A stretch of DNA of 64,000 nt from a virus. Numbering within the stretch: position 1 is the stretch's first letter; every line of letters starts with the position of its first letter. The notes below the pieces were generated by a model, which ran no database searches, was not told the DNA's origin, and saw only the letters and a list, made by a program, of their open reading frames with translations. The stretch is from IMG/VR virus record IMGVR_UViG_3300018412_000010, one strand, 5' to 3'. Of the stretch, positions 28,949 through 64,000 are shown one piece after another. The position numbers and the translations under genes were made by a program.

Positions 28949-29323
28949 GTGAATATCATGGATTTCAAAGAACTTAAAAACATAAAAGATTTTACATATG
29001 AATCACATAACTTCGTAGAAGATAAAGATGTTGAAGTGGAAAATGTAAACGAAAATAAATATCAAGTATATAAATATATGACAGAACCAGTATATTTTTC
29101 GGCGGCATATGGTGCCAGAGTTGGTGGTTCTGCTGAAAATGATGGTGGAACACAAAGAGGAAAAAGATCAGAAAAAATATCATGGTATGATGGCGAGTTT
29201 ATATCTAGTATATCTGACGGTGGCGGGATTTCAATAAACTATAATGATAACGATGATTTTGAAAAATGGATGTGTAGTTTTTTCAAGAAACCTAAAAACG
29301 ATTATGAAGTAGAACTTATATAG
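28949..29323 (+). CDS. Hypothetical protein with C-terminal tag YEVELI
   Basis: Only plus-strand tagged gene. Confidence 0.65.
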   Translation: MNIMDFKELKNIKDFTYESHNFVEDKDVEVENVNENKYQVYKYMTEPVYFSAAYGARVGGSAENDGGTQRGKRSEKISWYDGEFISSISDGGGISINYNDNDDFEKWMCSFFKKPKNDYEVELI

Positions 29324-29331
29324 GTGATTAT

Positions 29332-29556
29332 ATGAGAATAATAGAATCTGGTAATATACAATTATATACAACAAGATGTATTAGTTGTAAAAGTTTAATA
29401 GAGTTTAATGAGGGTGAAGAAAATTATGTCTTTGACCAAGATGGAATTTTTGGTTCATGTGAAGATTGGAGTATTAAATGCCCTATGTGTGGGACTAAGA
29501 TTCCAACAAGAAGTATTTGCCATCGTCAATACTATGATTGGAGAACTAAAGTATAA
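29332..29556 (+). CDS. Zn-ribbon protein
   Basis: CISC...CPMC. Confidence 0.6.
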   Translation: MRIIESGNIQLYTTRCISCKSLIEFNEGEENYVFDQDGIFGSCEDWSIKCPMCGTKIPTRSICHRQYYDWRTKV

Positions 29557-29570
29557 TCGAAAGGATTTAT

Positions 29571-29786
29571 ATGTGGAAAGATTTAGAAGTAGTCCATCCA
29601 GTTAAGCATGATGAATATTTGGTTACATTATACTATCCAAGAATATCAACATCTGCTAAGTGGTATAATAAAGAACAACAATTTTTAGATAGCAACAATA
29701 ATAAGTTAAGTGTTATTGCGTGGGATTATATGCCTAAACCATTTCTATTTGAATATGAGAAAATAGCGGGTGAATTTGATGAATGA
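29571..29786 (+). CDS. DUF551-like small protein
   Basis: W......P....EYLVT...VIAW..MP.P. Confidence 0.55.
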   Translation: MWKDLEVVHPVKHDEYLVTLYYPRISTSAKWYNKEQQFLDSNNNKLSVIAWDYMPKPFLFEYEKIAGEFDE

Positions 29787-29922
29787 TGAAAAGGATGTAT
29801 GTTGTGTAAATTATGAAGCTGAATATTATAGACAGTGTAAACAAATATGTGAACTTGCAGAAGAAGTTGAAAGGCTTAAACAATCTTTGATAAATGTTTG
29901 TTTAATGTTGGGTAAGTAATAA

Positions 29923-30318
29923 ATGGAAGATATTAAAGAATATTTTAATAAAAATAATATTCCTTATAATGATATTGATGAAAATATAAAAATTCTTGTA
30001 TATTGTTTTAATAAAATAGGATTAACAACAGAGTTTTCATGCGAAGGTCATAAAAACGGAGAATGTCCGACGATAATTTTTACAGAAGAAGTAAATGATG
30101 TAGTTATAGATAAATATATGCATATACTTTCGAATGGCGAATATATTGGGGAATTTAAGCAGTGGATAAGAAGCAGAGACCCCAATAATAAAGAAAATAA
30201 GAATTATATTTTAAAAAATTATATGTTTACAATAGATTCCGCATTATTTAATCAAGAAAGCAAATGTGATTTAATTAATAACGCAATAAGGATAATTTGT
30301 GAAATGTATAAATTGTAA
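29923..30318 (+). CDS. TYW3-like small protein
   Basis: IDENI..LV..FNKIGLTTEFSCEGH. Confidence 0.55.
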   Translation: MEDIKEYFNKNNIPYNDIDENIKILVYCFNKIGLTTEFSCEGHKNGECPTIIFTEEVNDVVIDKYMHILSNGEYIGEFKQWIRSRDPNNKENKNYILKNYMFTIDSALFNQESKCDLINNAIRIICEMYKL

Positions 30319-30332
30319 TTATGGAGTAAGCA

Positions 30333-30788
30333 ATGAATAACGAATTAATGTTTTCAAGTAATGATATGACATGGGAAACGCCACAAGACTTATTTGATAT
30401 TCTAAATTCTGAATTTAATTTCACTTTAGATGTATGCGCTTTACCACAAACTGCTAAGTGTAAAGAATATTATACACCAGAGATTAATGGTTTAATTCAA
30501 GACTGGAAAGGTGTATGTTGGATGAACCCACCTTATGGCAGAGGAATTAACCAATGGTTAAAGAAAGCATATGAAGAAAGTTTAAAAGGTGCTACGGTAG
30601 TGTGTCTGATACCATCAAGAACAGATACCAAGTATTGGCATGACTACTGTATGAAGGCTTCTGAAATTAGATTAATCAAAGGAAGATTAAAGTTTGGTGA
30701 AGCTATAAATTCTGCACCATTTCCAAGTGCAATTATAGTATTTGATAAAGATAATGGTAACTTAAAAGTAAGTGGGTACGAGGTGTAA
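30333..30788 (+). CDS. Phage N6-adenine DNA methyltransferase (Dam-like)
   Basis: WETP, FTLDVCA, NPPY, PSRTDT.YW, APFPS. Confidence 0.9.
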   Translation: MNNELMFSSNDMTWETPQDLFDILNSEFNFTLDVCALPQTAKCKEYYTPEINGLIQDWKGVCWMNPPYGRGINQWLKKAYEESLKGATVVCLIPSRTDTKYWHDYCMKASEIRLIKGRLKFGEAINSAPFPSAIIVFDKDNGNLKVSGYEV

Positions 30789-30932
30789 TATGGTAATTGA
30801 TTTTGGTAGACTTAAAAGAATATTAGTAGACTATTGTGAATGGAATATTACAGTAGAAGGTTGGGTAATTTCGGACGAGAAGCTGGATGATTATTTGGAT
30901 AGGCTTGATGAATTGGAAAAGGAGCAAGGCAA

Positions 30933-31097
30933 ATGATTAAGATAGAATTAAAAAACACATCACAAGCTTTGATTTATAAAAATGTAAAAAATACATATGA
31001 AAAAGGTTCTTTCTATTGTATCTATATAGAAGATAATGTGGTAAAGATTCCAATTCAAGATATTTTTAGAATTGAAGAAAATTATAAATTTAATTAA
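30933..31097 (+). CDS. 54-aa hypothetical protein (not in ORF track)
   Basis: AAGGAG RBS; MIKIELKNTSQ...KGSFYCI...P...IFRI. Confidence 0.5.
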   Translation: MIKIELKNTSQALIYKNVKNTYEKGSFYCIYIEDNVVKIPIQDIFRIEENYKFN

Positions 31098-31146
31098 TTA
31101 ATATTAATAAAAATAAATAAAAAATAAGAAAAAAGAGGTATAATAT

Positions 31147-62475: not shown

Positions 62476-62526
62476 TTCTATTACCTCCCAAGTAAAATAT
62501 AAATATTTGTTTTTCTTACTATATAT

Positions 62527-62555
62527 ATTATATCAAAATACAGATATAATGTCAA
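62527..62555 (-). promoter_or_regulatory. sigma-A promoter of mazF-rSAM-peptide unit
   Basis: TTGACA-17-TATAAT. Confidence 0.75.
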
Positions 62556-62563
62556 ATCTGTAT

Positions 62564-62902
62564 TTATACCAGCGTGACACTATAATCCATTTTAATATCA
62601 ACAATTCCATCAAGATGATTATAGTTTGCCACATCGACTTTTTCAAATGCGACATATTTGCTTATTCCAAAAAAAGTTTTTCTAATTTCATCACCGGCAA
62701 ATAATGACGCCTCCATGTTAAAATTATCATAATTATTTATTCGATATAACATTCTATATATTAACCCATCATATACAATAGGATAATACCCACCGACCTT
62801 CATAAATGGATTTATATTTCTATTTAATACGTTCGTGGCTTTAACCAAGCAGGATATTTTTAATTTTGATTCGTCAAATCCGATTATTTTCATATTTTCC
62901 AT
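62564..62902 (-). CDS. Family B small protein, tag YSVTLV
   Basis: CLVK...YYPIVYDG. Confidence 0.7.
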   Translation of the reverse strand: MENMKIIGFDESKLKISCLVKATNVLNRNINPFMKVGGYYPIVYDGLIYRMLYRINNYDNFNMEASLFAGDEIRKTFFGISKYVAFEKVDVANYNHLDGIVDIKMDYSVTLV

Positions 62903-62924
62903 AACAAGACACCCCGTCCATTCA

Positions 62925-63197
62925 CTAGATTCCTAATAGTATAACATCACCGATAGAATATATGGTTATGCATATTAGGGCTATTATAAATAACCAGAAG
63001 ATACCATATGCCAGTAAACATAGAATGTCGAATATAAAAATTATATTATACTTGATAATCAAATATTTCTTTGTGCTTCTGATATCAGTGGTTTTATTTT
63101 TAACATATTTACATATGCTTAATGAAATCTTTTTGATAAATGCACATATACATATAAATAAAGCTATTGAAAACAACCCTATTAAAAATTTAATCAT
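62925..63197 (-). CDS. Membrane protein
   Basis: Highly hydrophobic. Confidence 0.55.
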   Translation of the reverse strand: MIKFLIGLFSIALFICICAFIKKISLSICKYVKNKTTDIRSTKKYLIIKYNIIFIFDILCLLAYGIFWLFIIALICITIYSIGDVILLGI

Positions 63198-63209
63198 TCT
63201 TTTACCCCC

Positions 63210-63539
63210 TTAAATTAATTCAACTTCGTATGAATCAGAAGTTACAACGTGACCACTAATTCTATCATACTTTCTAATATAAATTCTTTCACATTCAACA
63301 TATCTTTCTATGTCACGAAACGTTCTTTCCGGATCAAGCCAACTGAACACGCGATATCCCATAGATAAATCTCTTGTTCCGTTGTTATGAAGAATTGAAT
63401 ATGCATTATCCTTCTTAACAATCGGATAATAATGACCCAGCTTTAAGTAGGAATTGATAGCCCTGTCTTTTATTTTGGTTATTTTTACCAACACCGTAAG
63501 TTCACATGAATTATCAAATCCATGTATTTTAATATTCAT
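63210..63539 (-). CDS. Family B small protein, tag YEVELI
   Basis: LVK...YYPIV, VFSW. Confidence 0.7.
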   Translation of the reverse strand: MNIKIHGFDNSCELTVLVKITKIKDRAINSYLKLGHYYPIVKKDNAYSILHNNGTRDLSMGYRVFSWLDPERTFRDIERYVECERIYIRKYDRISGHVVTSDSYEVELI

Positions 63540-63551
63540 AATATTTACCTC

Positions 63552-63848
63552 CTATATAAGTTCAACATTATAAGACTTTTTAACAGAAACTATTCCCGTG
63601 CCACACATAAGAAATATTCTGTCTTTTATTTCTACGGCATAAACTAATCCGTATGTTTCTATTCTTGCGTGTTCTGCTATTGCTACAATTGTGCCAATTT
63701 CCATTCTTATTGGTGATTTGCCAACTGTAAACATATGAAGTTTTTCGGGTATGTTTTTACCAACCCATTCTGCATATGAAGAATAACATTCGTATGAATT
63801 TGTAATCATAACAGAGTCGCCTACGTTAAAATTTTCCATCCGTATCAC
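63552..63848 (-). CDS. SH3/KOW-like family A1, tag YNVELI
   Basis: VGDSV.I...Y..Y..W...N.P. Confidence 0.7.
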   Translation of the reverse strand: MIRMENFNVGDSVMITNSYECYSSYAEWVGKNIPEKLHMFTVGKSPIRMEIGTIVAIAEHARIETYGLVYAVEIKDRIFLMCGTGIVSVKKSYNVELI

Positions 63849-64000
63849 CTATAATATATCTACGACATATGGATTGAATATATCAGAATAAGATGCGCTA
63901 TCGGTATAATACTCATCTTCGACATCTCCAAGTTCCATAATATAACCATCTGATGTAAATACTATTGGCAAATCACAATCTTCAATTACAGCATATATGC
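63849..64000 (-). CDS. 3' end of probable family E protein, tag YVVDIL (5' end outside window)
   Basis: ...LPIVFTSDG...YSDIFNPYVVDIL*. Confidence 0.65.
   Translation of the reverse strand, partial: IYAVIEDCDLPIVFTSDGYIMELGDVEDEYYTDSASYSDIFNPYVVDIL

Follow-up and report, generated by a model that had tools for sequence, protein, structure and literature searches.

Why should proteins of differing body, encoded by a large phage, end exactly at the stop codon in nearly the same few residues? This question is raised by a 64,000-nucleotide (nt) stretch of DNA (hereafter the window) from an uncultured large phage of Gram-positive type, represented by IMG/VR record IMGVR_UViG_3300018412_000010. A sequence-only reading of the window had reported a C-terminal hexapeptide on small proteins of unrelated families and had offered three possible functions for it, namely capsid loading, protein degradation and docking onto a common hub. 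Our analysis bears out the interpretation of a C-terminal, portable motif that is predicted to form a free tail, and it treats the three proposed functions as candidates of differing likelihood. The element, N-x-[YFL]-x-V-[DE]-L-[IL]-COOH, is likely to be a portable recognition tag, and it is probably bound by one common partner as an added beta strand. That it serves as a C-terminal degron feeding a Clp-type protease is a more tentative proposal, for which we infer the partner, the link to the protease and the timing. As judged from the sequences available, the novelty would lie in the unusually large number of clients that a phage encodes for one terminal recognition tag.

All open reading frames (ORFs) of at least 40 amino acids (aa) were extracted from the window, and the last residues before each stop codon were inspected. 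A loose form of the motif, [YF]-x-[VTAI]-x-[LI]-[ILV]-stop, closes 36 ORFs in the window. One of these carriers resides on the plus strand (28949-29323), and the other 35 reside on the minus strand between 36755 and 64000, where the window boundary truncates the final one. Together with a broken gene described below, these ORFs reproduce the earlier count of 35 intact copies, one pseudogene and one edge-truncated copy. The loose motif thus occurs at 36 of 130 called C-termini compared with five of 18,341 internal positions, a background from which about 0.04 C-terminal occurrences would be expected, and the frequency check proposed for the motif therefore comes out strongly in its favour. A strict form, [YF]xV[DEN]L[ILV], closes 24 of the 130 C-termini and is found at none of the 18,341 internal positions.

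The conserved stretch is longer than the hexapeptide originally described. Its full consensus, N-x-[YF]-x-V-[DE]-L-[IL], ends exactly at the stop codon, and the information content upstream of position -8 (where -1 is the last residue) falls below 1 bit among 74 tabulated carriers, so that eight residues rather than six make up the conserved element. In this set, Asn occupies position -8 in 43 carriers, Tyr, Leu or Phe occupies -6 in 73, Val occupies -4 in 70, Glu or Asp occupies -3 in 60, Leu occupies -2 in 68, and Ile or Leu occupies -1 in 71. The last residue is Ile in 44 carriers, Leu in 27 and Val in three, and is never Phe. The pattern corresponds to an amphipathic six-residue strand with one fully hydrophobic face, located beside a turn-forming Asn. 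The N-termini of the carriers are not conserved across groups.

The nucleotides that encode the tag vary freely. The Val codons within it are GTA (12), GTT (11), GTG (7) and GTC (3), six Leu codons and three Ile codons are used, and the tagged genes stop with TAG (14), TAA (14) or TGA (8). Because synonymous codons and all three stop codons vary, selection appears to act at the level of the protein. The same variation rules out a DNA repeat or a recombination linker, as the earlier reading had argued from its own sample of codons. The ribosome-binding site of the next gene usually begins directly after the stop codon of a tagged gene. However, an effect of termination context can also be set aside, since untagged genes exhibit the same stop-codon usage and the same downstream spacing. 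One public gene call (locus L002:909-1274) reads the TGA stop codon of a tagged gene as Trp and thereby appends six residues, and gene calls of this type hide the tag in databases.

A single conserved ending would be unremarkable if all carriers were simply members of one family, and therefore the relationships among their bodies are important. A BLAST comparison of the bodies, with the last eight residues removed, yielded 36 families among 75 carriers. Some of these families could be joined with hhalign by using enriched profiles (G-E, 95%; G-X2, 97%; A-E, 59-93%; a further merging link, 83%), such that groups E and G, one additional family and, more weakly, group A form one SH3-like superfamily by profile comparison. 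In contrast, groups B, C, D and F give probabilities of no more than 6.5% against everything else, and the value for group B against group E is 0.5%. By these sequence comparisons, there are at least five to seven independent groups among the carriers, with a single superfamily accounting for about a third of them. The claim that the bodies are unrelated thus holds, as far as profile comparison can tell, for groups B, C, D and F, for a DUF6501 protein and for a membrane protein, whereas it does not hold for groups A, E and G and the family that joins them.

None of the 35 window carriers searched against Pfam matched a family. Beyond the window, the 60-aa carrier at L010:12377-12556 belongs to Pfam family DUF6501 (25.2 bits, with a gathering cut-off of 23.8). 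Carriers of 206 to 210 aa (L010:5048-5680 and L018:712-1332) exhibit two hydrophobic segments resembling membrane spans at about residues 40-95. Because a two-pass membrane protein bears it, the tag extends beyond small soluble proteins, and the earlier statement that membrane proteins lack it must be corrected for the region past the window end.

Predicted structures are available for two carriers. The AlphaFold model of the group E carrier 42562..42810 comprises strands at residues 13-16, 37-43, 52-56, 63-66 and 71-73, which form a five-stranded SH3-like barrel. Its best Foldseek matches are the SPbeta protein YorP (2HEQ; template modelling (TM) score 0.63), CPH, PsaE and NusG-KOW, all with E values of 5.5e-3 or weaker. 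The model of the group B carrier 63210..63539 has a mean predicted local distance difference test (pLDDT) value of 88.8 and a predicted TM score of 0.80, and combines long strands with one helix. A Foldseek search of the Protein Data Bank (PDB) with this model gave no match (TM below 0.5). VIA-align repeatedly returned weak matches, the best of which was the SH3-like protein FeoA (Z 4.2, root-mean-square deviation 3.6 Å, 66 residues aligned). Group B therefore may adopt a new or strongly elaborated fold, to the extent that the model is correct. The ESM Atlas yielded only weak leads, for group C and for an untagged gene of 351 aa.

Several observations indicate that the tag is added to complete domains. 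The phrog_18380 profile (E 1.6e-8) stops at residue 69 of the 75-aa group E carrier 43160..43387, just before the hexapeptide, and the group E body occurs without the tag in gene 071 of Pectobacterium phage POP15 (70 aa) and in a metagenomic protein (P0013, 66 aa). Similarly, residues 2-49 of the DUF6501 carrier correspond to positions 12-64 of the 67 in the Pfam profile, and the tag octapeptide follows at residues 53-60. Untagged paralogues also are present within groups B and G. In the AlphaFold model of the group E carrier, the body is predicted with confidence (pLDDT 79), whereas tag residues 77-82 fall below a pLDDT of 50 and have no secondary structure. In the group B model, the last body strand covers residues 97-100, and tag residues 104-109 again fall below 50 and lack secondary structure. 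The tag begins two to three residues after the last body strand in both models, which were built from shallow alignments of 4 and 12 rows. Taken together, these observations point to a portable add-on, which the two models predict to be an exposed tail on two different folds.

The array of tagged genes is not confined to the window as first supposed, but continues for 12.8 kilobases (kb) past position 64000 (locus L010), where 23 further carriers of 60 to 210 aa are encoded. The total for this phage is thereby at least 59 carriers, spread over about 40 kb. Exact-protein look-ups led to a 169,327-bp contig in the European Nucleotide Archive and to several short contigs from other samples, and a close relative known from fragments retains both the genes and their tags. 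A HMMER search with group B recovered only 11 proteins among 1.84 billion representatives, and the tag is kept in all of the distant group B relatives (E 1e-18 to 1e-9). One weak match (P0024) led to a second uncultured phage lineage (loci L018 and L019) that likewise carries an array of small genes. In this second lineage, 16 ORFs close with [YLF]-x-V-[ED]-L-[IL], and Leu often replaces Tyr. Among orthologue pairs that span both lineages, the motif is kept in 13 of 13, at a body identity of 32%.

The search of related phages that the sequence-only reading had suggested therefore produced a second lineage that maintains the tag and six related records, one of them partial, that are without it. 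A degenerate DNA pattern for the tag gave 17 matches in the window and 17 in locus L010, compared with none in the 667 kb of five cultured relatives (c-st, BUCT082, PMBT24, Perkons and KKP_3916). The nearest record, MT835481.1, which is partial and lacks the small-gene array, contains no tagged ORF. When all of IMG/VR was searched with a narrow codon form of the tag, 27 single chance matches were obtained, none of them at the end of an ORF; this form gives four matches in 77 kb of the phage examined here, catches about one tag in 15, and would miss small sets. Window DNA found no match in the phage collection, groups B and C and the 206-aa carrier of the second lineage have no relatives in IMG/VR, and group B has none in JGI metagenome contigs or GTDB genomes. 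Our literature searches likewise turned up no account of a comparable tag from Gram-positive phages. In summary, the sequence behaves as a portable tag because it is C-terminal, resides on bodies that cannot be related to each other, is missing in homologues of two of these bodies, is predicted to be free on two different folds, and is conserved across two lineages while the bodies drift.

The arrangement of promoters offers a clue to when the carriers are made. Eight perfect sigma-A-type promoters (TTGACA, 17 nt, TATAAT) are distributed over 36246..62555 on the minus strand, with first hexamers that start at 62555, 60848, 54443, 53385, 47801, 41977, 40974 and 36274. All match the consensus at 12 of 12 positions, and seven of the eight also have the TG of an extended -10 element. 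Near-perfect examples are present at 55609 and 50490. The eight promoters reside on the coding strand in intergenic gaps, several of them directly after terminator hairpins, and divide the array into operons. Elsewhere, the phage encodes its own single-chain RNA polymerase of the YonO type (968 aa, 19765-22671, minus strand), which shares 47% identity with its counterpart on the unannotated faecal phage scaffold MT835481.1 and roughly 30% with those of SPbeta-like, c-st and Enterocloster phages. The late genes of SPbeta are transcribed by YonO (PMC5467207). Because the array has sigma-A promoters and the phage has its own YonO-type polymerase, the carriers look like early genes that are read by the host RNA polymerase. 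As a separate annotation matter, the YonO-type gene of Clostridium phage c-st is recorded as N- and C-terminal parts around another ORF.

If the tag is read by a single partner, this partner would be expected to make contact with the hydrophobic face (Y, V and L) and, at the very end, with the final side chain and the free carboxylate. Among the functions that such recognition might serve, a signal for turnover seems the likeliest single one, given the predicted exposure of a non-polar C-terminus, the early and abundant expression that the promoters suggest, the intact catalytic triad of the phage ClpP and the peptidase genes that head the array, although we propose it with less than even confidence. 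The ClpP gene (188 aa; 15216..15782, minus strand) encodes Ser, His and Asp residues that align with the triad residues of ClpP structures already solved. Immediately upstream of the tagged genes, past the window end (L015:526-2997), three genes head the array; their products are a peptidase of M28/M42-like type (352 aa), a NADAR protein (226 aa) and a member of the dipeptidase family Peptidase_S51 (214 aa). Under this proposal, the carriers would be made in bulk early in infection from consensus host-type promoters, and an AAA+ unfoldase, encoded by the host or elsewhere in the phage genome and working with the phage ClpP, would recognize them as a class by their tag. Later in infection, the carriers would be removed as a group, and the aminopeptidase-like and S51 peptidases could release the amino acids of the carriers for reuse. 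Considered on their own, the head peptidases and ClpP could constitute a set for recycling protein to amino acids.

Precedents exist for such a signal. The ssrA tag is a C-terminal degron that has sites for both an adaptor and an unfoldase, and it can be compared with the two-part appearance of the phage tag (N-x-Y plus V-[DE]-L-[IL]). Another example is the Lon degron class x-[LI]-[LIV]-H, in which autonomous C-terminal degrons occur on many unrelated proteins (PMC11986505). Like ssrA, which acts via ClpXP, ClpAP or FtsH, and like the Lon class, the phage tag is a short and autonomous element at the extreme C-terminus, with a hydrophobic end and a free carboxylate, that would label many unrelated proteins as a class. 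However, it ends in [DE]-L-[IL] rather than L-A-A, with an acidic residue at -3, and it is encoded within about 60 of the phage's own early proteins rather than added by transfer-messenger RNA. Moreover, no carrier ends in the invariant His of the Lon degron.

A number of points weigh against recognition by one partner or against degradation in particular. A Pfam-based search for a reader among about 50 untagged proteins, encoded in the 79 kb accessible of a genome of about 169 kb, found no PDZ or TPR domain, clamp, AAA+ unfoldase or adaptor. ClpP itself does not read degrons, which leaves its involvement possible but indirect. Recognition of ssrA-type signals by ClpX disfavours an acidic residue at -3. 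Such a residue is also disfavoured in the Lon degron (PMC11986505). In addition, two untagged group B paralogues retain F-x-I-x-[FW] at the tag position and then continue for 17-19 more residues, which suggests that in group B the position may be part of the fold, with the tail pairing with the preceding strand. The low confidence that AlphaFold assigns to the tails could result from the shallow alignments.

The same tag properties (terminal, free in codon choice and predicted to be exposed) would be expected if the tail instead docked, as an augmenting beta strand, on a single phage or host hub (a sliding clamp, ring or scaffold, for example) that gathers a changeable set of early effectors in one place. 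We consider this docking function unlikely, though worth keeping in view. Conservation of both strand faces suggests burial in a groove, and among T4 proteins the tails of gp33, gp55 and gp43 dock on the gp45 clamp; bacterial polymerases, too, bind their clamps through C-terminal motifs. The hydrophobic-[DE]-L-hydrophobic-COOH spacing also resembles that of the bacterial clamp-binding motif QL[SD]LF (more loosely QxxLF), which is C-terminal in B. subtilis PolC (PMC11952451), and the shared Leu falls at position -2, where 68 of 74 carriers have it. Yet two of the three key positions of the clamp motif fail, because the Gln at its position 1 is present in one of the 36 window carriers (position -5 of the tag is E, V, S, A, N, K or others) and the Phe at its position 5 never occurs, whereas Tyr -6 and Asn -8 of the tag have no counterpart in the motif. 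No clamp gene or other hub was seen in the accessible DNA, and some sixty competitors for one site are difficult to rationalize. A class III PDZ ligand, [DE]-x-hydrophobic-COOH, provides a further pattern match, with Glu or Asp at -3 (position -2 in PDZ numbering) in 60 of 74 carriers and Ile, Leu or Val as the last residue in all 74, and PDZ binding would likewise involve beta augmentation and carboxylate recognition. However, a PDZ domain usually leaves exposed the positions that are most conserved in the tag (-2, -4 and -6), bacterial PDZ proteins are mostly extracytoplasmic, and the scan of about 50 untagged proteins returned no PDZ match. Delivery into the capsid, in which the tail would bind the procapsid interior or a scaffold so that the carriers are packed and injected with the DNA, appears improbable. 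Encapsulin cargo peptides are C-terminal as well, although they follow a long flexible linker, whereas only two to three residues precede the tag in both models. The closest parallel is with the internal proteins of T4, where diverse, fast-evolving small proteins of defence type have only a terminal targeting peptide in common (PMC3012670). The T4 signal, in contrast, is N-terminal, is cleaved by the prohead protease, and directs a handful of late proteins to the scaffolding core. The phage tag is C-terminal and has no known link to the head, and its roughly 60 carriers, one of which is a two-pass membrane protein, far exceed any known cargo set. A further point against this option is that the carriers, whose genes lie well away from those of the head, look early on account of their consensus sigma-A promoters.

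Three further explanations can be considered. The ending could be an inherited structural strand that no partner reads, descended from a few ancestors that were duplicated within this lineage and diverged in their bodies while the last strand was kept for stability of the fold or of a dimer. Heavy tandem duplication is evident in the array, groups A, E and G and one more family do constitute a superfamily, group B repeatedly shows its weak resemblance to FeoA, and a comparable strand persists internally in the group B paralogues that have no tag. Nevertheless, we regard this origin as improbable. The sequence of a structural strand would be expected to change along with that of its body, whereas here one set of eight residues is found on 36 families that include a membrane protein; in addition, the strict motif is never internal, complete SH3-like and DUF6501 domains occur without the tail, and the AlphaFold models leave the tail unpacked. 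The tails of different carriers might alternatively zip together through their Y-V-L faces into oligomers or a common assembly, for which the amphipathic strand and its adjacent turn-forming Asn would be suited, and the scan of roughly 50 untagged proteins revealed no external reader. Such self-association is quite improbable, given that a six-residue strand makes a weak interface and that indiscriminate pairing among 60 proteins would bring no evident advantage; a complex prediction for tag-to-tag pairing of a group B with a group E carrier gave an ipSAE interface score of 0.01, a result of 'no answer' that counts neither way. Finally, because the motif must abut the stop codon and the next ribosome-binding site usually follows directly, it could be a handle for a chaperone or for co-translational events, aiding the folding of fast-evolving orphan proteins or coupling the translation of packed genes. 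This is very improbable, as spacing and stop usage do not differ for untagged genes of these operons, and we know of no precedent. In all, the tag shares the logic of C-terminal degrons, of the T4 capsid-targeting sequence and of clamp-binding tails, in each of which a single machine recognizes a short terminal peptide on otherwise unrelated proteins, but fails a defining feature of each.

The members of the recognizable groups are interspersed along the array, and the window carriers described here reside on the minus strand unless stated otherwise. The SH3-like superfamily includes group A, at 39331..39639 (102 aa, FEVVLL), 51474..51770 (98 aa, YEVNLL), 54914..55213 (99 aa, FEVELL), 58508..58813 (101 aa, YDVELI) and 63552..63848 (98 aa, YNVELI). 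Group E comprises the modelled carrier 42562..42810 (82 aa, YEVNLL) and those at 43160..43387 (75 aa, FKVDLL; the match to phrog_18380), 43405..43632 (75 aa, FNVELL) and 45289..45549 (86 aa, YEVDLI). Group G contributes 53007..53306 (99 aa, YKTELI) and 55236..55535 (99 aa, YVAELL), as well as the broken gene at 55644..55900, in which a 73-aa ORF (55679-55900) is frameshifted and the remnant in the other frame ends in YNVELI-stop at 55644.

Group B is represented at 39966..40316 (116 aa, YEVDLL), 42820..43146 (108 aa, YAVDLV), 48147..48488 (113 aa, YCVDLI), 62564..62902 (112 aa, YSVTLV) and 63210..63539 (109 aa, YEVELI; modelled), whereas group C is found at 43643..44011 (122 aa, YQIDLI), 45864..46223 (119 aa, YNVDLI), 46233..46586 (117 aa, YTVDII), 58141..58497 (118 aa, YSVDLI) and 58826..59176 (116 aa, YSVNLI). 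Members of group D are encoded at 44992..45273 (93 aa, YNVELL), 56178..56489 (103 aa, YEVALV), 56746..57066 (106 aa, YCVSLI) and 57082..57423 (113 aa, YVVGLI), and those of group F at 39672..39953 (93 aa, YAVSLI), 42006..42290 (94 aa, YKVDLI; followed by a terminator and a sigma-A promoter) and 57405..57695 (96 aa, YCVELI). The remaining intact carriers have singleton bodies. These are the ORF at 28949..29323 (124 aa, YEVELI), which is the sole carrier outside the array and on the plus strand, and those at 36755..37078 (107 aa, YIVDIL), 42305..42550 (81 aa, YAVDLI; a weak phrog_22041 match), 45546..45848 (100 aa, YKVDLI), 51280..51477 (65 aa, YTVNLL), 55897..56181 (94 aa, YVVDLL) and 56503..56742 (79 aa, YAVELI). 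The edge-cut ORF at 63849..64000 ends in YVVDIL and is complete (102 aa) at L010:12833-13141.

Untagged genes among the carriers encode two GNAT proteins, an NMNAT-like protein, a radical SAM protein, a protein with a MazF/PemK domain and several orphans. The GNAT paralogues (49294-49719 and 57707-58129, minus strand) have a common C-terminus of their own, KYYKLN[IL], which is unrelated to the tag. The 177-aa product of 61942-62475 (minus strand) consists of a 68-residue N-terminal extension and, at residues 69-174, a full PemK/MazF toxin domain (E 1.8e-35); its gene adjoins the radical SAM gene at 60994-61851, inside the early array. Genes related to nicotinamide adenine dinucleotide (NAD) are found beside both arrays. 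In this phage they are the gene for the NMNAT-like cytidylyltransferase (59190-59771, minus strand) and the NADAR gene, and in the second lineage (L018:3488-7071) they specify an isochorismatase/nicotinamidase, a nicotinate phosphoribosyltransferase (NAPRTase) and an NAD synthase. These genes may form a counter-defence set that restores NAD.

Outside the array, the genes for the portal protein and the large terminase are located at 8-12 kb, and those for an SbcD-like exonuclease, ClpP and PhoH/PIN proteins at 13-17 kb. Three tandem paralogues of 108-120 aa, which cluster by BLAST, lie downstream of the portal gene (6485-7583, minus strand). At 10414-13555 (minus strand), the large terminase gene (668 aa) overlaps a 387-aa ORF whose N-terminus resembles an HNH endonuclease. 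A further HNH gene is present at 17280-17684. Homing-type nucleases are dispersed over the genes for replication and packaging.

Among phage genes, the small early ones are the most poorly understood, and they are the site of most host-takeover and anti-defence functions. A peptide common to about 60 early proteins offers a single experimental handle on the whole set. Two of the protein groups involved may represent new folds or families and are also worth solving structurally, as the group B model lacks a Foldseek match in the PDB and relatives of group C are confined to the two lineages. It is possible, although somewhat doubtful at present, that one phage-encoded or host machine and a lineage-specific C-terminal octapeptide allow a fast-evolving early proteome of some 60 proteins with many folds to be handled as a class, whether for timed destruction and recycling, for delivery or for packaging. 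If such a tag-and-reader system exists, a new gene could join it by gaining eight codons before its stop codon. A degron or an address label of this type would explain how the phage swaps and adds orphan genes while controlling them as a group, and would provide a compact, portable tag for Gram-positive systems.

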